A stretch of 64,000 bases of DNA from Patescibacteria group bacterium (GTDB lineage Bacteria > Patescibacteriota > Microgenomatia > UBA10105 > UBA927). Location: contig JBMOPU010000012.1 of the NCBI GenBank assembly GCA_049322955.1, forward strand, positions 617,517 through 681,516, read 5' to 3'. A program made the translations under genes and the position numbers. The notes below the pieces were generated by a model. That model worked only from the letters and a program-made list of their open reading frames with translations. It was not told the DNA's origin and searched no databases. Below are positions 2,790 to 40,036 of the stretch, in pieces; the stretch's first letter is position 1, and each line of letters starts with the position of its first letter.

Positions 2790-3469
2790 GCAAGATCAGG
2801 TCGGCGTTTTTTTGTTTTGAGGGTTGCCTGTTCTTTTTGCCAGGCGACGATTGCGGCATGATTGCCGGAGAGCAAAACGGGCGGCACCGCACGGTTTTTG
2901 TACACTTCCGGGCGGGTATATTGCGGATACTCAAGCAGGTTATCTTCAAAGGATTCATGGACGGTGGCGTCGGTCTTTTTGAGTACGCCGGGAAGCAACC
3001 TGGTAATGCTGTCGACAAGTACCATGGCGGGTATTTCACCGCCCGTGAGCACGTAATCCCCGATGGAAATTTCCATATCGACAAGGTCCCGTACCCGTTC
3101 ATCAACCCCTTCATAGTGGCCGCAGAGGATCACAAGATGTGAGACGGTGTCCGCAAGTTCACGTGCCAGTTTCTGGTGATACGGAACTCCCTGCGGATCC
3201 ATAAGCACAATTTTTCGCTTATCAGGAGTTGCCGTCGAACGATCGAGGACAGCCGACAGGGCGCGGTCGATGACATCCACTTTAAGGACCATTCCCGCAC
3301 CGCCGCCGTAGGGATGGTCATCAACCGTTTTATAGGCATCGGTCGCATAGTCGCGAAGATGAACATATTCAACGATAAGCTTTTCTTGGGAAACGGCTCT
3401 TTTCAGTATTGAGGCGGTAAGCGGTCCGGAAAACATTTCCGGAAACAACGTGATGATCGAGATTTTCAT
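2786..3469 (-). CDS. trmD: tRNA (guanine37-N1)-methyltransferase TrmD
   Basis: MKISIITLFPEMF... and PYGGGAGMVLK motifs of the SPOUT TrmD family. Confidence 0.9.
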   Translation of the reverse strand: MKISIITLFPEMFSGPLTASILKRAVSQEKLIVEYVHLRDYATDAYKTVDDHPYGGGAGMVLKVDVIDRALSAVLDRSTATPDKRKIVLMDPQGVPYHQKLARELADTVSHLVILCGHYEGVDERVRDLVDMEISIGDYVLTGGEIPAMVLVDSITRLLPGVLKKTDATVHESFEDNLLEYPQYTRPEVYKNRAVPPVLLSGNHAAIVAWQKEQATLKTKKRRPDLA

Positions 3470-3723
3470 GCAGACACTTCTTGTGGTGCGGCGTCTTCTG
3501 CGATTTCAACATCAACAAACGTATTTGCTTTTGCCGCAAGCACTTTCATAAGGTCGCGAAGTGCTCGGATAATTCGGCCGCTTTTGCCGATGACCTTGCC
3601 GATATCAGAAGGATTCGTATGGATAATGAGGATAGTCGCGTCCCCGTCCATGCGTTCTTCAATGGTGACTTCCTCGGGATTGTCCACGAGGAACCGTACC
3701 ATGTAAAGGAGTGTGTCTTTCAT
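3466..3723 (-). CDS. KH-domain RNA-binding protein (YlqC/UPF0109-like)
   Basis: 85 aa with a VIGKSGRIIRALR KH signature; sits in the conserved position between rpsP and trmD. Confidence 0.7.
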   Translation of the reverse strand: MKDTLLYMVRFLVDNPEEVTIEERMDGDATILIIHTNPSDIGKVIGKSGRIIRALRDLMKVLAAKANTFVDVEIAEDAAPQEVSA

Positions 3724-5018: not shown

Positions 5019-5076
5019 CTCTCAGCTTTCAGTAATCAGCTCTCGCAATAGACAGCTGGCAACTGAAAACCGATGA

Positions 5077-5283
5077 TTACGCGGTCTGTTTTTTGGTTTT
5101 CTTTGTTTTGACGGTTGCCACCTGGCGTCCGCCATAAAAACCACAGTATTTACATGCTCGATGCGGAAGCCGCGGCTTGCCACAGTTTGCGCAAATCATG
5201 ATGCCGGGAAGAGTCATACGGATGCTTGCATCCCGTTTGCCCTGGCGTCGTTTTGAATGTCTTCGTTTTGGTAGCGGTGTCAT
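5077..5283 (-). CDS. rpmF: 50S ribosomal protein L32
   Basis: PKRRHSKRRQGKR N-terminus and CxxC...CxxC zinc ribbon, typical of Gram-positive-type L32. Confidence 0.8.
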   Translation of the reverse strand: MTPLPKRRHSKRRQGKRDASIRMTLPGIMICANCGKPRLPHRACKYCGFYGGRQVATVKTKKTKKQTA

Positions 5284-5286
5284 AGG

Positions 5287-24373: not shown

Positions 24374-25108
<735 letters not shown>

Positions 25109-25309
25109 CGCCGATTTTCCCGGCGCCTCCTCTGTTAATAAATAATAAATAACCGATAGTTTAGGGTGTAAAAATCACATATCCCTATCTATCAGTCTTT
25201 TCTATCGTAAAATTCTAGGCAGAAGAAATTTATTGAGGCTTATAGTGTAACATACCATACGTAACCTGACAAGAGAGGCGTATCTTTTGGCGAAGAATGC
25301 TTGCGAGGG

Positions 25310-25383
25310 TGGGCGCACAGGGGCTCGAACCCCGGACCTTTGCAATGTGAATGCAACGCTCTAGCCAGCTGAGCTATGCGCCC
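25310..25383 (-). tRNA. tRNA-Val (anticodon CAC), no encoded CCA
   Basis: Manual cloverleaf: acceptor GGGCGCA/TGCGCCC, anticodon loop TTCACAT, T-loop TTCGAGC. Confidence 0.8.
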
Positions 25384-25390
25384 GTGTTTT

Positions 25391-25430
25391 CTGGGACAAA
25401 ACCTGCGGTTTTTTCCCAACGATTTTCCCT
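25391..25430 (-). promoter_or_regulatory. conserved tRNA 5'-leader hairpin motif, copy 1 (upstream of tRNA-Val)
   Basis: Plus-strand CTGGGACAAAACC-TGC-GGTTTTTTCCC-AACGATTTTCCC; shared with copies at 31450 and 33588. Confidence 0.5.
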
Positions 25431-25636
25431 TCAGTGGAGTCGCGAAAGCAGAGGTTCCTCTGCAGAAAACTTCGCGAAGCGTCTTTGTTACTGAAAGAAA
25501 ACATTGTCATTATATATGGAAGCAACGGATTTGGAAAGAATTGTAACGAAAGGGAAAAAGAGCGGTGGCGGTGTTTATCCGGCTATGCCGGATGCCACAT
25601 CGAGAAAAAACCCGCAGGTTTTGTCTCGAGATGCGC

Positions 25637-26239
25637 TTAGCCTGCTGAGGTGGCAAGCGACCGTTCATTAGAGAGGCCAAAGGTGGTACCGTGTTTCTTG
25701 TACATACCCCAGTACCCCATTTTCTTTTTGCGGGTAGCAAATGACGCAAGCCAGGTGCGGCTATCCTCAACCTGTTCACGAAGCACTTTGATGAACGTGC
25801 GAAGTTGTTCGTAGAAGTTCAAATGATACACGCCGGGATTGACCACTTCCTGACTGACTGCGGTCGCGACTTCATTATGGAGGTTTTTGAGCGATACGAT
25901 AAGCGCTTTCAGTTCGGCACGAATTGCATCAAGCTGGCGCTTTGTTTCCGCTTCGATTACATCCGAATTCGGTTTGGGCTGAGGATGTGCTTCCACCCGA
26001 ACGGGTTGCACCGCAACCTGTTTTTCCGGTTTCGTATCACCGAATTCAATGGTTTGATTCGGCCGTAGTTCTCCCGATGCGGGCATCCCCCCGATAAGCG
26101 AAGCGACGATATCACCCCCGATTTTCGAAAATTCGGAAACTGTACTTTTCCCCACGCTTGAAGGTACGGAGCCCAAAGCTTCGAGGACATTATCGTTCTT
26201 ATAATGGTTCTGCTTTTTCTTGGAGGCTAGCTGTGCCAT
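25637..26239 (-). CDS. hypothetical protein
   Basis: 200 aa, no recognisable motif; lies upstream of the trigger-factor-like gene. Confidence 0.4.
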   Translation of the reverse strand: MAQLASKKKQNHYKNDNVLEALGSVPSSVGKSTVSEFSKIGGDIVASLIGGMPASGELRPNQTIEFGDTKPEKQVAVQPVRVEAHPQPKPNSDVIEAETKRQLDAIRAELKALIVSLKNLHNEVATAVSQEVVNPGVYHLNFYEQLRTFIKVLREQVEDSRTWLASFATRKKKMGYWGMYKKHGTTFGLSNERSLATSAG

Positions 26240-26282
26240 AGCGCCTGCATTATACCCTCACGGGCAGTGCAATTGCAAACGA

Positions 26283-27149
26283 TTACGCCATGAGGCCGTC
26301 GAGGGTTTTTTGCCTTCGGATGAGTGACGTTAGGTAATACCGTTGCCCTTCAAGCGCCGTGCGCTCTTCGGGTGATTTGGCGGTCGAAAGGAGCTTATCC
26401 ACTTCCGCTTCGCTCACGGTAACCTTTTCCTGCTCGGCAATCGCTTCAAGACCGAACTCAAGGGTCAGGTTCTTGGCCGCCTGGGCACGAAAATCAGCCC
26501 GAATCGAGTCTGCCGTCTTTCCTGTTGAGGAGAGATACTGTTCCACGGAAAGCCCGAGTTTTTTGGTTTGATCGACGAGTTGTGAAAGCTGATGGGTAAC
26601 TTCATGCTCAAGCAAAATTCCGGGAAGCTTCGCCTCGATTGCGGTAAGCAATGCATCAAGTACTTCGTCCACGGAAGGCCCTTTCGGTTGCGTATCTTCT
26701 TTCCCCGGAACCAGTATTTTGCTCCCGCCTTTGGCCGCTTTGACATCGGCCACTGCTTTTTTGTAGTCCTTCAGTGTCACGACGGGTCGTTCACAGGTTT
26801 TGGCAAGAACGATCCAATCTTTCCCTTCTTCTGCACTTTTCAGTTCAATCTGCGGCATCATGATGGGCGCGACTTTTTGTTCCATCACGGCGTCGGTATA
26901 GGCTTTCGGCACTAACCGCTTGATTGTTTCTTCGTAGGTTTTGGTCTTGTCGATATTTTCCTCAATGATTTGCTTGGGAGCTTTTCCTTTGCGGAAACCT
27001 GCTATTTCGGTGTTACTTGCCGTCTCGGTAACGACGGTCTGATACATGTCCTGGATGTCGCTCCAGGGAATGGTGATGGTAAGTTCAATTGTGCCGTCTT
27101 CGGTTCGGTTGATGGTGCTTTTCATAATTGCCAAGTGTAACACAGGCAT
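26283..27149 (-). CDS. tig: trigger factor, domain-reduced (N-terminal ribosome-binding + C-terminal domain, no PPIase domain)
   Basis: GFRKGKAP trigger-factor signature in the N-domain; total length only 288 aa; an alternative start is 27125. Confidence 0.6.
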   Translation of the reverse strand: MPVLHLAIMKSTINRTEDGTIELTITIPWSDIQDMYQTVVTETASNTEIAGFRKGKAPKQIIEENIDKTKTYEETIKRLVPKAYTDAVMEQKVAPIMMPQIELKSAEEGKDWIVLAKTCERPVVTLKDYKKAVADVKAAKGGSKILVPGKEDTQPKGPSVDEVLDALLTAIEAKLPGILLEHEVTHQLSQLVDQTKKLGLSVEQYLSSTGKTADSIRADFRAQAAKNLTLEFGLEAIAEQEKVTVSEAEVDKLLSTAKSPEERTALEGQRYYLTSLIRRQKTLDGLMA

Positions 27150-27173
27150 GCCTGAGCGTAAAGGGATCGCTCA

Positions 27174-27641
27174 TCAATTGGAAAGATTGAGCTCGAGATC
27201 CAAGATGGGAGGAGCAAGGGTACTGTCCTGTAACGAAAACGAGTTGAGTGTTGCCGAAAATGAGGCAATCTCTTCCTTAAATGCCATAAACGCGGTGGTT
27301 GTCGCAATCCGGGAGACATTGGGAGGAGGGGTCGGTGTCGGTATATGTGTGGGCGTGACGGCAACGGGAGGAGCGGACGTCGTCGGCGCGGCACTTCGTG
27401 CATACAATAAGCCGAAAACCACAATTCCAACAAACAGGATCGCACCGACGACAATATAAAGAACATTCCCCTTTTTTGCTTTGGGAGGAGCAGTCGGCGG
27501 GGTGGTGAGTGATGAAAGTGACGGTTGAACCGTAGGGGTCTGTTCGGGTGCTTGTTGTTGAGGAACAGGCGACGGGGTGGCCTGTGGTGCGGTTGCTGTC
27601 GGTTCATTCACTGTCGGTGATGGTGATTGTTGTTCGTCCAT
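27174..27641 (-). CDS. Pro/Thr-rich single-pass membrane protein (hypothetical)
   Basis: PT-rich low-complexity N-terminus, one TM helix (LYIVVGAILFVGIVVFGLL). Confidence 0.4.
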   Translation of the reverse strand: MDEQQSPSPTVNEPTATAPQATPSPVPQQQAPEQTPTVQPSLSSLTTPPTAPPKAKKGNVLYIVVGAILFVGIVVFGLLYARSAAPTTSAPPVAVTPTHIPTPTPPPNVSRIATTTAFMAFKEEIASFSATLNSFSLQDSTLAPPILDLELNLSN

Positions 27642-27643
27642 AG

Positions 27644-28441
27644 TTATTCGTAGGTTAATGCGGTTTCCAATTCCTTAAGATACGATCCCGCTTCCACAAG
27701 ATCTTGTCGTGCGGTATTGACGGTTCCCTGTAATTGCTGGAATATGCGCTCCTGTTGTTGCACGTCTCCGGTAATTTTGGGAATCGTCGCCCGAATCGTA
27801 TTGGCTTTTTGCTGATACAAGCTGTATTTATTGGAAAGAGCCAACAGCCAACGATCCAAAATAGCCTGCTTTTGGGGTGAAGCGTCCGTTTTGCTCGCAT
27901 TGATAAGCACCTGCGAGTGGGTCGCGACATCATTAAACTCTTTGGCGAAGTAGTTAAGATACCCAAGTTGCAGTGCCGCGATAATCTGCCGATAGGCCGA
28001 CTGCATGGTTTCGTAGTTGGTAACAAATTTTTCCGATACGTCTTCGGCGTCATCAAGTGAAGCGATCGAAGGGGCTAAAATAAGATGTTGATCCAAATAC
28101 GCGATTTGGTTGGTGAGGATCGCCCGATACGTTTGTTTTTCGCTGGCGATCATTCCGGGGTTTTCCGTGATTTTCTCATTAAGAAACAGGAAATAGGTTT
28201 TCGCGACATTCCCCCGCTGGGCGATATACAATTTCACTTTTTCCAGTACATCCTGTTGCGATGCCAACGATTTGAATTGCTTGTATTGATTTAACGCAAT
28301 CTGGTAATCGGATAACCGTTGGCGATACACGCTGAACTGATATTGGTAATCCTGATATGCCTGTTGACTCGTGGCAAAAGCGGGCCGTGGCACGATAAGG
28401 AAGCTCACCGCCAGCAAAAATAGATACGCAATTCTTCTCAC
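27644..28441 (-). CDS. secreted alpha-helical hypothetical protein
   Basis: Signal peptide MRRIAYLFLLAVSFLIVPRPAFA; Q/Y-rich helical repeats. Confidence 0.45.
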   Translation of the reverse strand: MRRIAYLFLLAVSFLIVPRPAFATSQQAYQDYQYQFSVYRQRLSDYQIALNQYKQFKSLASQQDVLEKVKLYIAQRGNVAKTYFLFLNEKITENPGMIASEKQTYRAILTNQIAYLDQHLILAPSIASLDDAEDVSEKFVTNYETMQSAYRQIIAALQLGYLNYFAKEFNDVATHSQVLINASKTDASPQKQAILDRWLLALSNKYSLYQQKANTIRATIPKITGDVQQQERIFQQLQGTVNTARQDLVEAGSYLKELETALTYE

Positions 28442-28488
28442 CGAATTATCGTACCATGCAAAAAAATGAGAATCAACGCGAAATATTT

Positions 28489-28797
28489 TTACTTCCTCTT
28501 GGTGTGGTGATGTTCGGGTAATCGGGTAGCGATACCGCAGGTGAGGCTAAACAGACGGAGTTTCGTACGACCGTCCGCAAGGCAAAAGTTGCAGGCTTTT
28601 TTCATCGTATCCGTTACTTTTGTGCCTTCCGCGCCTATGGCATCCCATTGCTTCCCCAAATCGGTGAGCATCGTTCGTATGAGCTGGCGGTTTCCCTCTC
28701 CCGCCTCTGCGTCTTCGGCCTGATGGCAGGCTAAGCACTGACCGTCGATGGCCCGAGCGGCCGCTTCTAATTTGTCGTCCGAAAGAATTTCATTCAT
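28489..28797 (-). CDS. small CxxC...CxxC putative metal-binding protein (contains CLACH)
   Basis: Two Cys pairs (CLAC, CNFC); no signal peptide. Confidence 0.35.
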   Translation of the reverse strand: MNEILSDDKLEAAARAIDGQCLACHQAEDAEAGEGNRQLIRTMLTDLGKQWDAIGAEGTKVTDTMKKACNFCLADGRTKLRLFSLTCGIATRLPEHHHTKRK

Positions 28798-28952
28798 GGG
28801 TTATGCGAGCTTTTTTTACCGTACGTTATGTCGTGAAGAAGCATTGAATACTTGTAACCGCGACACCCTGCAAAGTGTGATGCGTTTTGTGCTCCCGAGA
28901 GAAACGATCCCCTAAGGGGTACCACATCCCGCTCAGCGGGATACGTTGAGTG

Positions 28953-29034
28953 TGCCGCTGAGAGGACTTGAACCTCTAAGCCTTACGGCACAGGTTCCTA
29001 AAACCTGCGTGTCTACCAGTTTCACCACAGCGGC
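28953..29034 (-). tRNA. tRNA-Leu (anticodon TAG), long variable arm, no encoded CCA
   Basis: Manual fold: acceptor GCCGCTG/CAGCGGC, anticodon loop TTTAGGA, T-loop TTCAAGT; near-identical to tRNA-Leu(GAG) at 41370. Confidence 0.8.
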
Positions 29035-29056
29035 GTATGCTCGATTATACCCTGCT

Positions 29057-29662
29057 TTAGATGGTGACTTCCAGATGTTCGACACCCACGGGATCAAAGT
29101 TTTCGATCTTCGTAAGGAAATAACGCACCTTTATACTCCACGTCGGTGACGCGGCATAGATGCTCCCCATTTTCTCAATGGTATCCGCTCCACGATCAAT
29201 ATACCGATACTTCAAACCCTCGGAAACCGTGGTAATCCCGTCTTTCCAGCTGTCAAAATGTATACCGTCATTTTGTCCGGTGAATACTCCCCAACCCCAT
29301 CCGTTATAGGAATTGCGCGGAATATGTTTGCCGAAGGTAGATTCTACCCCTGCAATGGCGGCGACAAGTTTCCAATCAAGCCCAAGTCTGTCTGCCTCCG
29401 CGATAAAATGCCCCGCATCATCCGCCATGGGTGAATTATGCAGAGTAAGGTATGCCTTCAGTTTGGTGACACGGGCATCGGCAACCGTTTCAGGTATGGG
29501 AAGATGCGCGGAAGCTTCCGCCATGGGAAGAGCCTGCGCAAAAGCGGGCTTTGTAATACACCCAAAAAGGACAAACGACAATGCTATAGTTATGGCTTTT
29601 TTCATAGTCTTACCTCGCATTGATCCCGATACATTCGGGACAAAGGTGAAGTAAGAGAACAT
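29057..29662 (-). CDS. secreted lytic transglycosylase / muramidase-like protein (paralog A)
   Basis: Signal peptide; AIAGVESTFG (ES catalytic-Glu-like motif); paralogous to 29979..30575. Confidence 0.45.
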   Translation of the reverse strand: MFSYFTFVPNVSGSMRGKTMKKAITIALSFVLFGCITKPAFAQALPMAEASAHLPIPETVADARVTKLKAYLTLHNSPMADDAGHFIAEADRLGLDWKLVAAIAGVESTFGKHIPRNSYNGWGWGVFTGQNDGIHFDSWKDGITTVSEGLKYRYIDRGADTIEKMGSIYAASPTWSIKVRYFLTKIENFDPVGVEHLEVTI

Positions 29663-29978
29663 CTTGCCTCATATGTGGGTGAGGCATCGGGGAAGACTGA
29701 GGAATGAGTCGTTAACGGGTACTCAAGCGGGCAGTTTATTTAGCCTCAATTTGAGGCGGCTTGAGTATCCATTAATAACCCTAAAGCAAGCTATGGTTTA
29801 GGTAGCAAACCTTAGGATCTAAGGATGTACTATACCCTATAATAGTTATCTTGTCAAGTCTATGGGCTATTCAGACAAAATGATCTACCCTATTATATAG
29901 GCGCGTTAGTACTTTTTTGTATGTATTATGGGTTAATTATTTGGAGATAAAAAATAAGAAAAGACGAAGCGCGAATAC

Positions 29979-30575
29979 TTACTGAATTTCCGTCATGAAG
30001 TGATCGACGCAATTTGCCCAGGAGTTTCCGTTGGCAACGGAAGGGGGTGCGTATATAGCACCGATATCAACAAGTTCAGTGATGCCTCTGGCAAAATATT
30101 TTTCTTTGAGATATCTCGACACCCAATCAATCGCGTACAGCCAGTTGGGAAATTTTGCGCCGCTAATTTCTCCCGTCTCGACGCTTATTCCCCATGCATT
30201 ATGCGAGTCTTTGCTCGGCATGCGTTTGCCCACATTGCTCTCGCACATGGCGATAGCAGGGACAAGCCGGTAATCAATGCCGTAATGTTCAGCCCTATCG
30301 ACGATGTATTCGGCATACTCCGCAATCGGTGACTCATGTTCTTCTAAAAATTTCGTAAGCAGAAGTGCCCGGGCATCACCCGCAAGTACACTCGCACCCA
30401 ATACCTGTTCGGTACCGTAGGAAGATGCGGCAATGCGCATCGGGGGAACGATCGGCGTCACGACTTCCCCTGCATTTGCTTTATTGGTCAGGGTAATAAG
30501 CAGTGATAAATTGACGGCAAGAAGGCTCAAGGTGAGGGGAAACCACACCAGCGCAATCAGTGCTTTTTTAAGCAT
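29979..30575 (-). CDS. secreted lytic transglycosylase / muramidase-like protein (paralog B)
   Basis: Signal peptide; AIAMCESNVG motif; same architecture as paralog A. Confidence 0.45.
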   Translation of the reverse strand: MLKKALIALVWFPLTLSLLAVNLSLLITLTNKANAGEVVTPIVPPMRIAASSYGTEQVLGASVLAGDARALLLTKFLEEHESPIAEYAEYIVDRAEHYGIDYRLVPAIAMCESNVGKRMPSKDSHNAWGISVETGEISGAKFPNWLYAIDWVSRYLKEKYFARGITELVDIGAIYAPPSVANGNSWANCVDHFMTEIQ

Positions 30576-30632
30576 ATAAACATACTGACATGACCCGATA
30601 GTTCTGTCAACTTGACATGCGGGATTAGCGCG

Positions 30633-31367
30633 TTAAATACGGAAGAATGTTCCCACAACGTATGCTACAAGAGCCGATATTCCGCCGACGAGAAGCGTTT
30701 CGCTGATTGTCTGGAAAGGTTTTCGCTGGGTAACGCCCGCACGGAGTGCGCCGAGGAGTAGCAATGCTGAGGCGGTTGCGATAACGGAATAAAGAAAAAC
30801 ATTCGATCCCATATGTATCATGTATGGCACAAGCGGTATAGTACCGAAGCAGATAAAGGCCAAAAACGTCGCAACGGCCACGACGATCGGCTTTTCACCT
30901 TCCGGATTCGTCATTTCGAGCTCGTCCTTCATCATAAACTCCGTCCAATAGGAAGGATTCGTGCGATAAATACTCGCCAGCGTTGTGGCGTCCTTTTCAC
31001 TAAATCCCTTGTTATGAAGAATCGTAATCGTTTCGGCAAACTCTCCCTCGGGTTCATGGAGGATTTCATGATGTTCTTTGGCTTTTTCGTTGCGATAGAC
31101 TTCCTGATCTGCTCGAAGCGAGAGGAAACTACCCAATCCCATGGATAAGCCGTCGGCAAACAAATTGGCTAATCCGAATAATAAAACGGTTATCACGGGA
31201 ACAGAGGAGGTGACAGGATCCTGTTGTGCACCGGCAAATCCGGCGACGACGGCAAATGTGGTGACGATCCCGTCATTGCCGCCATAGACGATCTCCCGAA
31301 GGTATTGGGAAAACGCCGTGCGTTTGTGTTCCGTCGCAAGGTGTTTCGCCAAATCAAATTTTTTCAT
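30633..31367 (-). CDS. VIT1/CCC1-family Fe/Mn transporter
   Basis: YGGNDGIVTTFAVVAGFAGA N-terminal motif, central cytoplasmic loop, five TM helices. Confidence 0.7.
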   Translation of the reverse strand: MKKFDLAKHLATEHKRTAFSQYLREIVYGGNDGIVTTFAVVAGFAGAQQDPVTSSVPVITVLLFGLANLFADGLSMGLGSFLSLRADQEVYRNEKAKEHHEILHEPEGEFAETITILHNKGFSEKDATTLASIYRTNPSYWTEFMMKDELEMTNPEGEKPIVVAVATFLAFICFGTIPLVPYMIHMGSNVFLYSVIATASALLLLGALRAGVTQRKPFQTISETLLVGGISALVAYVVGTFFRI

Positions 31368-31371
31368 CGTG

Positions 31372-31443
31372 TGAGCGCAGAAGGATTCGAACCTTCAACC
31401 GACAACTTAAGAGGTTGCTGCTCTACCGTTGAGCTATGCGCCC
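31372..31443 (-). tRNA. tRNA-Lys (anticodon CTT), no encoded CCA
   Basis: Manual fold: acceptor GGGCGCA/TGCGCTC, anticodon loop CTCTTAA, T-loop TTCGAAT. Confidence 0.8.
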
Positions 31444-31449
31444 TATTCA

Positions 31450-31487
31450 TGGGGCAAAACCGAGGTTTTTCCCCAACGCTTTTCCTT
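31450..31487 (-). promoter_or_regulatory. conserved tRNA 5'-leader hairpin motif, copy 2 (upstream of tRNA-Lys); a TATAAT box and second hairpin lie further upstream (to ~31550)
   Basis: Plus-strand TGGGGCAAAACC-GA-GGTTTTTCCCC-AACGCTTTTCC; followed by the GTTGCAACGG...CCGTTGCAAC hairpin and, on the minus strand, GGCGTATAAT. Confidence 0.5.
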
Positions 31488-31584
31488 CAAGGTGTTGCAA
31501 CGGGTTCAGATCGAGAGCCACACCGTTGCAACAAATTATACGCCAATTCCTTCGTTGTAATCTCCACTTTCTTATTCACTGCGG

Positions 31585-31656
31585 CGCCCTTGGAGGGAAT
31601 CGAACCCCCATCACCTGTTCCGAAGACAGGCACTTTATCCATTAAGCTACAAGGGC
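31585..31656 (-). tRNA. tRNA-Arg (anticodon TCG), no encoded CCA
   Basis: Manual fold: acceptor GCCCTTG/CAAGGGC, anticodon loop CTTCGGA. Confidence 0.8.
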
Positions 31657-31659
31657 AAC

Positions 31660-31738
31660 TGGGGTGGCTGAGCGGATTCGAACCGCCGACATTCTGCTCC
31701 ACAGGCAGACGCTCTAACCGGGCTGAGCTACAGCCACC
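31660..31738 (-). tRNA. tRNA-His (anticodon GTG) with encoded G-1 and encoded 3' CCA
   Basis: G(-1)GTGGCTG acceptor, anticodon loop CTGTGGA, 3' end CAGCCAC-C-CCA; 3 nt from tRNA-Arg. Confidence 0.8.
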
Positions 31739-31800
31739 AATGACAATATTGTACCTTATTCAGGCGTGATTTGCATGGAGATATACGTGCGCGAAAGGAG

Positions 31801-33510
31801 TTACGGACCGACGAATAGCGAGAGAATAAAGTTCGGTTGTAACTTTATGACGGCAACTGCATCTCTGAAGGTAAGCGCACCGTCCCGATCAAAATCGAGC
31901 GGCAAGGCCTTTGGCATACGAACGTTTGTTCCTTTTGCCGCAATCTCCGTAATACGCTGGGTGGGCAAATAATACGGAACTAAAACGACGACACGATACT
32001 TATTCCCCGGTACGACGTTTCGTAATTCGCCCACTTCGGCTTTACCGTTTTTGAAGGTCACTCCCTGGATTTTATGAATCAATGAAAGATGCTCATACAC
32101 CAGCACGGTTGCGTTTGTAGTATCACTTTGCGTGCGCCACCCCAATTCCGCGTTCACGGTAATAGAAGGCGGCGGAACGACGGCAATGCTACCTGATTCG
32201 ATAGGAATTATCGTGTCATGGTGTCGTATGTTCAGCGCATACGCATAGGTTCCTGGCTGGTTCGGTGTTTCGAGATGGAGTGAAAGCGTACCGAATTGCA
32301 ATGGTTCCATGACGGGAAGCGGGTCATGTACCATGAGAAAAGGAGGATCGATGACCAGCTCCACCGTATATTCCTTATCCTGTTGGGTGAGTATCCCTTG
32401 CCCCTCATTCTTCAAAAGCCCCGTCAGTACGTAAGTGGAACCCGCCACTAACGATTCGGGGAGGATTCGTTTATCAAGGGTATATTTTTCCCGTTGCCTT
32501 GGTCTGCCTTGCGGCTTAGGCAATTTTTGATAGGCATAATAGTGACTGTAATACTCGCCGCTCCCGAGTTTTTTCCAGGAAAAGTGATCAAAGGGAAGGC
32601 CCTGATAACTGAATACAAACGGGGTGACCGCGACGATATTCGGATCATTCCATACGGTGGTAGCCGCAATGGCGAGGTTTGCCCCAACCTGATCTGTGGT
32701 AAGGAGTGCCGAATTGGGCGTCATTCCTTCACGATGTACCCAACCGGTTTCGGTAATAAATACCGGCAGTTTCTTTTGCACGCCCAATTCTGTAAGACGC
32801 ATAAGTTCCCACTGATATGAACGAAGTGTTCCGCGACCTATCGCGTACGGTGACCCGGAAAACGCCGGATTGGGGTACGAGTGTGACGTCCAACCGTCCA
32901 GGTGATCAGCAAGTTTCGGTTCGGCGGCAAACATACGCGCCAAATAGACCGAAGCGTCCATGGATCTGCCGTCGGATGCCGCGGAAACATCCAGCCCCGC
33001 CGGAAGCACAAAAAAATCCTCGCTTACTTCATGCAATTTTCTCGCGTGGGAAACCAGGGTTCTGGCATAGTCTTCGGGGTCGAGTGTTCTCCCCCACTCG
33101 TTGGCATGATTCGGTTCGTTAAACAACACGACGTATCGATTTTCCGTCGGCCAATTTAAACTATTGAGAAAGCGCGCCCAATCGCTCGCTGAATCCTTAT
33201 ACGGCTTTGCCCAGGAATCTCCCTGGATGTGCGTGGCAATACGCACGATCGGTATGAGGTGGAGCGAACGCATATCATTCATTACCCTCTGCCACTTCCC
33301 GAGATCACGATCGTCTTCCTGCATAACCAGCGTGACATATCCCCAATCGCCGCCGTTACTGTTTATGAGATCCTTGGTACTGCCGAGATCATTGGGATCC
33401 ACGATATGAATACCGAATTTATTATTCGGTACGGAGAGCGGATCATATTTCGCGGCGACCGTTTGCGGTAACAACAGGACGGCGATAAGGAGAAGAAAAA
33501 AAACTTTCAT
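31801..33510 (-). CDS. secreted GH5-like (clan GH-A) glycoside hydrolase with C-terminal beta-sandwich domains
   Basis: Signal peptide; VVLFNEPN (acid/base Glu) and FITETGW (nucleophile Glu) motifs, separated by roughly 100 residues. Confidence 0.6.
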   Translation of the reverse strand: MKVFFLLLIAVLLLPQTVAAKYDPLSVPNNKFGIHIVDPNDLGSTKDLINSNGGDWGYVTLVMQEDDRDLGKWQRVMNDMRSLHLIPIVRIATHIQGDSWAKPYKDSASDWARFLNSLNWPTENRYVVLFNEPNHANEWGRTLDPEDYARTLVSHARKLHEVSEDFFVLPAGLDVSAASDGRSMDASVYLARMFAAEPKLADHLDGWTSHSYPNPAFSGSPYAIGRGTLRSYQWELMRLTELGVQKKLPVFITETGWVHREGMTPNSALLTTDQVGANLAIAATTVWNDPNIVAVTPFVFSYQGLPFDHFSWKKLGSGEYYSHYYAYQKLPKPQGRPRQREKYTLDKRILPESLVAGSTYVLTGLLKNEGQGILTQQDKEYTVELVIDPPFLMVHDPLPVMEPLQFGTLSLHLETPNQPGTYAYALNIRHHDTIIPIESGSIAVVPPPSITVNAELGWRTQSDTTNATVLVYEHLSLIHKIQGVTFKNGKAEVGELRNVVPGNKYRVVVLVPYYLPTQRITEIAAKGTNVRMPKALPLDFDRDGALTFRDAVAVIKLQPNFILSLFVGP

Positions 33511-33511
33511 G

Positions 33512-33583
33512 TACCCCCAGAAGGAATCGAACCTTCATCGGATCATTAGAAGTGATCTGCTCTATCCATTGAGCTATGGGGGC
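33512..33583 (-). tRNA. tRNA-Arg (anticodon TCT), no encoded CCA
   Basis: Manual fold: acceptor GCCCCCA/TGGGGGT, anticodon loop CTTCTAA, T-loop TTCGATT. Confidence 0.8.
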
Positions 33584-33587
33584 GTTC

Positions 33588-33627
33588 TGGGGCAAAACCT
33601 AGCGGTTTTTCCCCAACGATTTTCCCT
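33588..33627 (-). promoter_or_regulatory. conserved tRNA 5'-leader hairpin motif, copy 3 (upstream of tRNA-Arg TCT), followed by the GTTGCAAGC...GCTTGCAAC hairpin
   Basis: Plus-strand TGGGGCAAAACC-TAGC-GGTTTTTCCCC-AACGATTTTCCC. Confidence 0.5.
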
Positions 33628-33771
33628 ATTGTGTTGCAAGCTATTCACTCGCATACGCACGCTTGCAACGGATTTTGCCCATTTGATAACGGTTACTTGG
33701 CTTATCCAACGGGCTTTCCGGCAAGTATACGTATTATAAAGGTTTTTGCTACAGGTGAGAAGCGAATGGAA

Positions 33772-35587: not shown

Positions 35588-35696
35588 TTCTTGGACGGGA
35601 AACGACGTTTCCCTTCCGACTATTGTACCCGGTTATCCTGCTGGCGATATATCATATCGCCGGATAATCTCACGTCATATTATATCGTGTTTTGCG

Positions 35697-39352: not shown

Positions 39353-40029
39353 ATCTCGGATGTTTGGTACGTCGTAAGAAGAAATGGCACAACACGACTT
39401 ATAAGTTGTTGTTTGACTGTTCGTCCCGCTTTGCCGGGAATTTCCAGGGTAAATGAACGGTTTGCGCGTCGCTCGTCGTACAACCACTTACTCAAAAATC
39501 CGGCAGTGCCGGCTGTTTTTTCAAATCCCAAAGATACATAGCCTTTTTCAACAAGTAAATTCAAATGTTCGTCGTCCACATCATCGACGCCGCTATACAG
39601 TCTGGCGTCGGTCTGTTGAACAAGCTCACGATAACGTTCAAGTTCGTTTATCGTCATTTGTTCACTGTCGTAAAGATAAAATCCGAGCGTGCGATCCGGA
39701 TCCTCATGCACGTCAACGCAAAGCGAAAATCGGTATTGGGAGACAAGCGACATAACAGAGAGTGCCTCAGGATCTTTTGATCCCCGCACAAACTGTCTAT
39801 TTATATCATTGCCGTAGCGGTTTTTGCGTTTTTTGACTTCGACGGCACTTGGGCTTACTTGCGGAATATAAAGAAACGATGGTAAGGAGGAAGCATACGT
39901 TCGTAGATAGTGTTCGAGCAACGCGCCCGATTCATATTCATCGCCGTGCATGCCCGAAAGCAACAACACACGGGGAGATTCTCCGGAAAGAATATAAGGA
40001 AGCCTCCCTTGGTGTAATTGGTTATCCAT
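39349..40029 (-). CDS. M14-family zinc carboxypeptidase / AstE-AspA-like deacylase
   Basis: SGMHGDE zinc-binding motif and DVHED; start set at the internal ATG (40029), since the longer ORF would overlap tRNA-Leu(TAA). Confidence 0.5.
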   Translation of the reverse strand: MDNQLHQGRLPYILSGESPRVLLLSGMHGDEYESGALLEHYLRTYASSLPSFLYIPQVSPSAVEVKKRKNRYGNDINRQFVRGSKDPEALSVMSLVSQYRFSLCVDVHEDPDRTLGFYLYDSEQMTINELERYRELVQQTDARLYSGVDDVDDEHLNLLVEKGYVSLGFEKTAGTAGFLSKWLYDERRANRSFTLEIPGKAGRTVKQQLISRVVPFLLTTYQTSEI

Positions 40030-40036
40030 TGGTAAG

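Follow-up and report, generated by a model that had tools for sequence, protein, structure and literature searches.

A conserved tRNA-leader hairpin is the 3' part of a two-hairpin leader element common to tRNA and protein genes of Microgenomates bacteria

Genes and leader hairpins at the locus

A 64,000-nucleotide (nt) stretch of the genome of a Patescibacteria group bacterium (contig JBMOPU010000012.1, positions 617,517 to 681,516; hereafter the window) carries 11 tRNA genes, as called by ARAGORN and Rfam. Three of these genes, tRNA-Val(CAC), tRNA-Lys(CTT) and tRNA-Arg(TCT), are directly preceded by a conserved hairpin that a preliminary description, made from the sequence alone, had reported as a ~40-nt motif of tRNA leaders. 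We call this hairpin P2, its 5' and 3' arms R2 and R3, and the purine-rich repeat just before it R1 (Table 1). The preliminary description had placed and described the three P2 hairpins correctly, on the minus strand and in the sense of the tRNAs. Their common sequence reads GGAAAAKCGUUGGGRAAAAACC, a 2-4-nt loop and GGUUUUGYCCCA, followed by a spacer of 8, 6 or 4 nt to tRNA-Val, tRNA-Lys or tRNA-Arg, respectively. Each P2 forms an 11-12-base-pair (bp) hairpin with one internal A.G mismatch and a folding energy of -12.5 to -15.4 kcal/mol. This recurrence is far above chance, with four matches in the window to the pattern CAAAACC-N2-6-GGTTTTT where 0.01 were expected, and three matches to the R1-R2 23-mer at up to three mismatches where none were expected.

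The ~40-nt motif is real, but it is only the 3' hairpin of a two-hairpin leader element of ~98 nt. Scanning one genome from each of 185,579 species with the exact pattern gave 75 loci, nearly all of them in Microgenomates, and these together with the window hold 82 exact-pattern copies of the same architecture. In an alignment of 64 non-redundant copies, the order is a -10-like hexamer, 0-3 nt, a first hairpin (P1), ACA with a variable linker of 6-8 nt, R1 (GGGAAAAUCGUU) and P2. The stem of P1 is 9-11 bp long and variable in sequence, and its loop of 19-20 nt contains a semi-conserved GUG...GAGUGAAUA. The arms of P2, UGGGRAAAAACC and GGUUUUGYCCCA, form 12 positions with one obligate purine-purine mismatch and are closed by a stable tetraloop. 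About 35 nt of the whole element are near-invariant. In 35 of the ~66 copies that have P1, only 0-2 nt separate the -10-like hexamer from the first paired base of this hairpin (in the window, 31534-31541 and 33670-33677).

This architecture also revises what had been reported upstream of P2 in the window. The second hairpin, of GTTGCAA type and noted in two copies, corresponds to P1 and exists in all three, with a different sequence in the Val copy. A TATAAT box had likewise been assigned to two copies; it abuts P1 only in the Lys copy, the Arg copy has CAAAAT at P1 and TATAAT farther upstream, and the TATAAT of the Val copy falls within 25509-25537. From a promoter match at 33733..33761, the P1 of the Arg copy would be fully transcribed. 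The other tRNAs of the window were said to lack the motif, but tRNA-Gly(TCC) has a diverged P2-like hairpin. Its leader reads TACAAU-AGUC-GGAAGGGAAAC-GUC-GUUUCCCGUCC-AAGAA, with neither P1 nor R1, and the hairpin stands 4 nt after the TACAAT box (35622-35627) and 5 nt before the tRNA. A hairpin directly behind a -10 box without P1 and R1 suggests that P2 is the core of the element and is able to stand at the very start of a transcript.

By record title, the 75 loci belong to Gottesmanbacteria (18), Roizmanbacteria (17), Levybacteria (6), other Microgenomates or 'Patescibacteria group' (14), Saccharibacteria (2), Paceibacterota (1) and metagenome-assembled genomes (MAGs) labelled 'uncultured Gammaproteobacteria' or Bathyarchaeia (17). 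The labels of these last 17 are probably wrong, since the leader and flank of at least one of them (L018) are nearly identical to those of the window Arg copy. Four loci of one MAG (L018, L022, L037 and L067) are near-identical to the window at orthologous sites. The window itself evidently belongs to a Gottesmanbacteria-like genome. The full set of mislabelled loci is L006, L013, L018, L022, L025, L032, L034, L037, L039, L047, L055, L057, L062, L066, L067, L069 and L071.

Covariation points to an RNA structure

RNAalifold predicted both P1 and P2, with compensatory changes in every pair of P1. In the window, a covariance model of the element picked out the three copies, at 66-93 bits, and nothing else but an isolated hairpin at 25600-25628 on the plus strand; across the loci it gave 100 matches. 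In the model alignment 97.7% of cells were paired and 16 of 18 pairs showed double changes, values reached by 0 of 500 shuffles, with the qualifications that this alignment is fitted to the model and that the copies are phylogenetically related, so that the shuffle statistics overstate independence. Sliding the partners by 1-3 columns cut pairing to 24-55%. Mutual information with average product correction (MI/APC) recovered a 9-bp P1 independently, and the same analysis detected neither a pseudoknot nor tertiary covariation, with no coupling of the P1 loop to the linker.

P2 can be judged apart from the search pattern because its 3' arm lay outside it. All 82 copies have a complementary 3' arm. 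At the fourth pair, 60 copies have A-U, the other 22 have G-C and none departs from these two; the mismatch is A.G in 77 copies and A.A in five, never Watson-Crick. P2 loops are mostly tetraloops of GNNA or UUCG type, and the loop carries a 26-nt insertion in L059 and longer ones in the diverged copies L046 and L049. In five diverged copies (L013, L016, L019, L053 and L068), A-U to G-C and G.U changes leave the helix intact, and the mismatch is retained. In 55 of 76 copies (p = 9e-6), the fold of the P1 region is more stable for the sense strand than for the antisense strand. Taken together, the covariation, the complementary 3' arm, the loops and their insertions, the mismatch and the strand bias are better explained by RNA structure on the tRNA-sense strand than by a palindrome in the DNA. 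Covariation and loop types thus bear out the earlier view that the motif is a conserved structured leader on the transcribed strand and not a promoter hexamer.

The same features weigh on the idea of a DNA operator, in which R1 and R2, as direct repeats ~12 bp apart, and the inverted R3 would be half-sites for a transcription factor. Three GGGA(A/C)AAAA half-sites in direct-direct-inverted order next to a -10 box would suit such a site, as would a degree of sequence conservation that is unusual for an RNA stem. Canonical and variant half-sites within one genome (L016, L019 and the window) would, however, call for several paralogous factors, and an operator would have to tolerate the insertions between R2 and R3. 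The tetraloops and G.U pairs point to RNA, and R2 differs from the complement of R3 in a conserved, asymmetric manner at the mismatch. We regard an operator as highly improbable.

The element precedes both tRNA and protein genes

Among the 82 exact-pattern copies, 31 have a tRNA gene 4-9 nt downstream (mode 4), and the tRNAs are of many specificities. About six further copies are followed by apparent interrupted tRNA genes. In another ~25, a strong Shine-Dalgarno site (GGAGGUGA-like) begins 5-12 nt downstream and a start codon comes after it. Pfam searches identified the downstream proteins as ATP synthase c (AtpE), L7/L12, S21, HU, YbaB and Hsp20, with further matches to the ATP synthase alpha/beta N-terminal domain, an RRM protein, DUF5679 and DUF1761; membrane proteins are also in the set. 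In L048 the RRM protein is encoded after two tandem copies of the element. Small proteins of these kinds are typically abundant. In our judgement the motif is very probably a transcribed, structured leader element common to tRNA and protein genes.

Where a tRNA follows, the element has the position of a tRNA 5' leader, lying on the tRNA strand 4-9 nt before +1 with -10 boxes upstream. The proposal that it is specific to tRNA leaders did not hold, as ~25 copies precede protein genes, one precedes a 23S fragment and some stand in tandem arrays. The preliminary description had counted random occurrence at many non-tRNA sites as evidence against its reading; such sites are indeed many, but they are not random and have the same promoter-proximal place. 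A precursor-leader or regulator site for tRNAs, tuning or replacing RNase P, would fit the three canonical window copies and the 31 tRNA copies overall, the diverged copies that are likewise upstream of tRNAs, and the 4-nt minimum distance, which is compatible with a steric limit for RNase P. This reading is nonetheless largely refuted by the protein genes that follow at a similar distance, and the 23S copy, the many tRNAs of these genomes with plain TATAAT promoters and no element, and the degraded Lys leader of L052 also count against it. We judge it very unlikely. Rfam detected no RNase P RNA in the 64-kb window.

Most tRNAs in the sequences have no element and carry a TATAAT box 9-14 nt from +1, so that the element looks like a module inserted between the promoter and the transcript body. 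It stands at tRNA-Arg-TCT in the window, L018, L052, L012, L019 and L047, which include Gottesmanbacteria and Levybacteria, and recurs at Asp-GTC, Pro-GGG, Gln-UUG and Thr-CGU across class-level distances. The arrangement of tRNA-Arg(TCG), element and tRNA-Lys(CTT) occurs in both the window and L066. The recurrence at matching tRNA species across classes argues for old, vertical inheritance. Decay was also seen, as the orthologous Lys leader of L052 keeps only the 3' half of P2.

The only rRNA-near locus is L050 (5260-5650, minus strand), where a Saccharibacteria 23S rRNA gene has an insertion with an 80-amino-acid (aa) open reading frame (ORF) and then a full element. The 23S sequence resumes 4 nt after P2, and the 23S gene may be split or internally promoted. 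No 16S/23S rRNA operon follows the element at any of the 75 loci. In six cases (L019 ~3415-3535, L037 ~2920-3110, L065, L069, L038 and L026) a sequence like a tRNA 5' half, with acceptor and D arm, directly follows P2 and the ARAGORN tRNA call lies 47-135 nt farther on. These may be intron- or insertion-containing tRNA genes.

Copies with no recognizable gene after them (L003, L005, L060 and L072, pointing into a convergent gene), together with others in arrays, raise the alternative that the excised leader is itself the product, a stable small RNA freed by RNase P or other processing that acts as a sponge or guide through its single-stranded centre of ~20 nt, made up of the linker and R1. Such an RNA would be in keeping with the architecture, in which a conserved single-stranded segment joins the 5' hairpin to a 3' hairpin that ends in stable tetraloops. 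The distance from the element to the tRNA or Shine-Dalgarno site is tight and constant, which suggests a role in cis instead, and no target complementarity was found, the R1-R2 23-mer matching only the three elements themselves in the window. We consider a small RNA quite unlikely.

R1 mirrors the 5' arm of P2

The first 7 nt of R2 recur in R1, and the two vary together through five sequence classes, namely GGGAAAA with GGGAAAAAACC, GGGAAG-AUCG with GGGAAGAAACC, GGAAGG-AUCG with GGGAAGGAAAC, GGAAGGGA with GGAAGGGAAAC, and GGGAAA with GGGAAAAACC. R1 tracked R2 in every variant class (L013, L016, L019, L068, L076, L080, L131, L136, L168 and L181), and MI detected the R1-R2 column pair. The mirroring also held in six metagenome copies found with a pattern that left the purine block of R1 free; the metagenome scan with the R2-variant pattern gave mostly chance matches, and only 6-7 true elements were usable. 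This three-way relation among R1, R2 and R3 goes beyond simple hairpin models.

Canonical and variant R1/R2 classes occur together in one genome, which makes a common trans partner unlikely. The natural reading of the mirroring is that R1 and R2 pair alternatively with one 3' arm, R3. The element would then be an RNA switch in which a signal or factor picks the conformer, controlling tRNA genes together with those of abundant proteins as a regulon of the translation apparatus. Besides the class-wise changes, the fold of L054 agrees with this idea, since with a mutated R3 it adopts R1:R3 in its minimum-free-energy structure. The alternative R1:R3 helix was nevertheless rejected, as its duplexes are weak (-5 to -9 kcal/mol, against -10 to -13 for P2) and not class-specific. 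P2 is in the minimum-free-energy structure of 70 of 77 copies. The downstream site is equally exposed in both conformers, with no terminator, no Shine-Dalgarno sequestration and no evident platform, and the gene set is heterogeneous. A switch of this kind is unlikely in our view.

Other candidate roles for R1 and P2 were set aside as well. A purine-purine-pyrimidine triplex was judged, by reasoning only, to be incompatible with the parallel R1/R2 arrangement. GAAAAU in R1 as a -10 box, with P2 at the transcript start, was rejected because the GGAAAAGCG class lacks the final T. P2 is not an intrinsic terminator on either strand, having no adjacent U-tract; a terminator scan of the window gave 15 sites against a shuffle mean of 13.0, and its sole match at a P2 site was a partial stem at 33587-33602 (plus strand) in the Arg copy. 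No riboswitch or attenuator expression platform was found, the Shine-Dalgarno site lying unpaired 5-12 nt past P2, and the downstream genes (tRNAs, ribosomal proteins, HU, AtpE, Hsp20, RRM and membrane proteins) are not the metabolically coherent set of a riboswitch.

Tandem arrays and repeat-like copies

Five loci (L067 at 5075-5284 on the minus strand, L014, L015, L063 and L070) hold tandem arrays of R1-P2 units with a period of 85-87 nt, each unit being followed by a conserved AAAGNGGUCAGCG... module. In L067, the array occupies the interval between ftsI and murE, runs antisense to the two genes and has a conserved TATTATAC box upstream of it. The 'spacers' of the arrays are identical or near-identical, rather than unique as they would be between CRISPR repeats or Cas6 substrates. 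Degenerate second copies were also seen 70-170 nt upstream of an intact one, in L007 (2605-2694), L031 (2332-2427), L035 (4515-4606) and L066 (772-865); in L007 an unrelated hairpin replaces P2 and the R1-like GUGAAAAUC is kept.

In the window, the isolated P2-like hairpin at 25600-25628 is opposite in orientation and just past the 3' end of a DUF5660 ORF (25637-26239, minus strand). The AUCGAG before this hairpin resembles the R1 tail AUCGUU. This hairpin and the five arrays are the only copies that look like repetitive extragenic palindromes (REPs) or bacterial interspersed mosaic elements (BIMEs), which are extragenic, found mainly at 3' ends or between genes, and present in either orientation. 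Palindrome and repetition are both there, but most of the 82 copies stand at a fixed distance before a tRNA or ORF and share its orientation.

These copies bear on whether the element is a REP/BIME-like or Correia-like repeat, or a 'mobile promoter' cassette, whose conservation comes from its own propagation or gene conversion. Such elements resemble ours in having several copies per genome and tandem arrays, and some bring a -10 box; P2 is likewise an imperfect palindrome with a conserved mismatch. Up to six exact-pattern copies were found on the examined contigs of one genome, some in odd contexts (the ftsI/murE arrays, the 23S insertion and a copy antisense to a convergent gene). P1 'flavours' are common to paralogous copies within a lineage, one MAG has copies near-identical including their flanks (L020, L021, L041 and L042), and the degenerate upstream duplicates add to this side. 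Against propagation stand the matching loci, with orthologous placement, across class-level distances and a GC content of 35-52%, and the strict, promoter-proximal position, orientation and spacing to the downstream gene, unlike the scatter of REPs over 3' ends and intergenic regions. In the window and the loci examined, terminal inverted repeats, target duplications and a transposase link were not observed, and no copies were found in viral contigs. A self-propagating repeat therefore has a low probability in our estimate.

Comparison with known families and leader elements

Rfam 15 gave no match over the three window copies at gathering thresholds or at E values up to 10, and none over the elements in 18 related loci. 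The sole Rfam overlap was a spurious snoZ178 on the opposite strand, with 18 bits against a gathering score of 100. No description of the element was found in the papers searched on RNA motifs, promoters and leaders of Microgenomates and Patescibacteria, nor in the motif-discovery papers PMC7247131 and PMC5737381; coverage of this literature was incomplete, and an earlier description is possible. We take the element to be a new, Microgenomates-wide structured leader element.

Several known systems offer partial parallels. Stem-loops that stabilize RNA 5' ends include the E. coli ompA 5' hairpin and the B. subtilis aprE, ermC and SP82 leaders, and the element is like them in having the P1 hairpin at or very near the predicted 5' end, a second hairpin just before the ribosome-binding site, and genes of kinds that are usually highly expressed. 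Known stabilizers are gene-specific and are not known to have a conserved sequence, whereas the element has ~35 near-invariant nt that are common to unrelated genes, including tRNAs, and are kept across a superphylum-level group. A 5' stabilizer has its stem within a few nt of the RNA 5' end; in the 35 copies with a -10-like hexamer 0-2 nt before P1, the predicted start falls inside the stem and would leave no 5' tail.

Like rrn leaders and lambda nut sites (boxB, boxA and boxC), the element is promoter-proximal on stable-RNA and ribosomal-protein genes and has a variable hairpin, then a conserved linear sequence, then a second structured part; like the HK022 put RNAs, it has two hairpins with internal irregularities, and those RNAs act in cis. 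It differs from rrn and nut sites in lacking a boxA-like sequence, the linker and R1 showing by eye no resemblance to E. coli boxA, and in being absent upstream of the 16S/23S operon at all 75 loci. tRNA genes are, moreover, too short to need antitermination. Mimicry of rRNA was rejected, as no convincing similar helix was seen in the one 23S/5S locus compared (L050).

Synthetic 5'-untranslated-region (UTR) insulators, RiboJ plus a hairpin, are also a standard module between the promoter and the ribosome-binding site or RNA, with a hairpin a few nt before the functional part. The element is natural, occurs before tRNAs too, and shows no evidence of self-cleavage. A new small self-cleaving ribozyme that trims the leader, as a natural RiboJ-like insulator, would be in keeping with a small two-helix RNA that has an invariant single-stranded segment and always stands directly 5' of a functional RNA. 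No ribozyme family matched even at E up to 10, however, the conservation is mainly in the stem and not in junctions, P2 occurs without P1, and the covariation analysis gave no pseudoknot or tertiary contact. We hold a ribozyme to be extremely unlikely.

A proposed role at the 5' end of transcripts

We read the element as an ancient, vertically kept module of Microgenomates bacteria, part of the candidate phyla radiation (CPR), that stands between the promoter and the transcript body of a subset of tRNAs and small protein genes. From its observed sequence, structure, conservation, position and gene associations we infer a transcription start, the binding of a factor and an effect on stability or processing. 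The element would act in cis as RNA, with the functional RNA starting 4-9 nt after P2 at a tRNA +1 or a strong Shine-Dalgarno site. The near-invariant R1-P2 with its mismatch would be the putative binding site of a conserved trans-acting factor, and the two hairpins would decide what becomes of the 5' end by shielding it from 5'-end-dependent decay. Alternatively or in addition, they may insulate or present the downstream RNase P site or ribosome-binding site, or mark a site for processing directly 3' of P2. RNase P would then remove the whole leader from tRNA transcripts. As a whole, this mechanism of a factor-bound R1-P2 in an RNA module that sets 5'-end fate is a tentative proposal, with a chance somewhat short of even.

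A number of points weigh against this proposal. A simple stabilizer hairpin would not need ~35 near-invariant nt, and it is not obvious what a tRNA would gain from 5' protection when its leader is removed anyway. In the arrays, P2 and R1 occur without P1 or a -10 box, as would rather be expected of a repeat element. The exact-pattern seed favors copies with conserved R1-R2 sequence, and the shuffle statistics are subject to the relatedness of the copies noted above. Finally, a standard start, at the seventh nt after the -10 box, would place the 5' end within the 5' arm of P1, even though covariation extends to the outermost P1 pairs. Part of P1 may be made only from upstream promoters or by read-through. 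In the window this clash is partly resolved, as the Arg and Val copies have better promoter matches 46 and ~30 nt farther upstream and the Lys copy is readable from the His-Arg tRNA cluster.

A large share of bacterial diversity belongs to the CPR, whose control of transcription and RNA processing is almost unexplored. An element present across Gottesmanbacteria, Roizmanbacteria and Levybacteria implies a conserved trans-acting partner and an expression step common to unrelated genes. Its interest lies in serving tRNA and mRNA genes alike, in a conservation that demands a partner, and in genomes where ORFs start directly after tRNA 3' ends. The element could be used as RNA bait for pull-downs, its covariance model could define the regulon, and it could mark transcript starts in metatranscriptomes. 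If it were only a portable promoter-leader cassette, it would still be an annotation feature and a possible strong-expression part for these organisms.

ORFs abutting tRNA genes

Long ORFs without a Shine-Dalgarno site, as judged by eye, start 0-8 nt after the tRNA 3' end at 17 of 119 tRNAs. The window has such junctions at 33508-33513, 31365-31372 and 40027-40036, and others were seen in L018, L049, L052, L022, L053, L056, L057, L069, L071 and L016. Pairings that recur across genomes are Arg-TCT with a large ORF, Thr-CGU with a 237-aa Ig-like-domain protein, Leu-UAA with an M14-like peptidase and Lys-CUU with VIT1. The arrangement recalls the tRNA punctuation of mitochondria and suggests that processing of the tRNA 3' end may release these ORFs as leaderless mRNAs.

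A wider reading would make P2, with R1, the mark of an RNA 'punctuation' in Microgenomates. A putative conserved nuclease or ribonucleoprotein would set the 5' ends of tRNAs, abundant mRNAs and the rRNA fragment a few nt 3' of the hairpin and, with the tRNA-abutted ORFs, mitochondrion-like punctuation would replace one promoter and one 5' UTR per gene. We see this as a speculative and rather doubtful extension. If it were true, expression in these reduced bacteria would rest on mitochondrion-like RNA punctuation.

Table 1. Leader elements, their parts and associated features in the window
Feature	Position	Strand	Details
Full leader element, Val copy	25392..25494	-	covariance-model match 66 bits; sequence; fold
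Val-copy P2	25392-25418	-	
Val-copy R1	25419-25429	-	
Val-copy P1	25440-25477	-	different sequence (UCGCGAAG...CUUUCGCGA), with inner hairpin
Sigma-70-like promoter match	25509..25537	-	TTTCCA-17-TATAAT; upstream of Val copy
tRNA-Val(CAC)	25308..25383	-	8 nt downstream of P2
Isolated P2-like hairpin	25600..25628	+	UCGAGAAAAAACC-CGCA-GGUUUUGUCUCG; partial covariance-model match 23.9 bits; fold z -4.9
VIT1-family ORF	30633-31367		starts 3 nt after tRNA-Lys(CTT)
tRNA-Lys(CTT)	31371..31443	-	6 nt downstream of P2
Full leader element, Lys copy	31450..31548	-	between tRNA-Arg(TCG) and tRNA-Lys(CTT); covariance-model match 81.1 bits; sequence; fold
Lys-copy P2	31450-31475	-	
Lys-copy R1	31476-31486	-	GGAAAAGCGU
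Lys-copy P1	31493-31533	-	arms UGUUGCAACGG/CCGUUGCAACA
Lys-copy TATAAT	31536-31541	-	2 nt from P1
569-aa ORF	31801-33510		starts directly after tRNA-Arg(TCT)
tRNA-Arg(TCT)	33511..33583	-	4 nt downstream of P2
Full leader element, Arg(TCT) copy	33588..33685	-	covariance-model match 93.1 bits, E 1e-20; sequence; fold
Arg-copy P2	33588-33615	-	R3 arm 33588-33599; loop GCUA 33600-33603; R2 arm 33604-33615
Arg-copy R1 repeat	33616-33626	-	GGGAAAAUCGU
Arg-copy P1	33633-33669	-	9-bp arms GUUGCAAGC/GCUUGCAAC
Arg-copy -10-like CAAAAU	33672-33677	-	next to P1
Sigma-70-like promoter match	33733..33761	-	TTCTCA-17-TATAAT; ~46 nt upstream of Arg copy; consensus match only
Gly(TCC) P2-like hairpin	35593-35617 within 35593..35627	-	GGAAGGGAAAC-GUC-GUUUCCCGUCC; A.G mismatch; -13.6 kcal/mol, z -2.1

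Other observations in the window

A purine-arm hairpin at 766-794 was discarded, as it lies inside an ORF and the generic hairpin scan of the window was unspecific. An ORF at 24374-25108 on the minus strand, ~200 nt downstream of tRNA-Val, matches a collagen triple-helix repeat, which is unusual for a bacterial protein. The GC content of the window falls from ~0.48-0.52 to ~0.38-0.45 from position ~42000 to the end, and this drop may reflect an island, a different replicon region or an assembly join.

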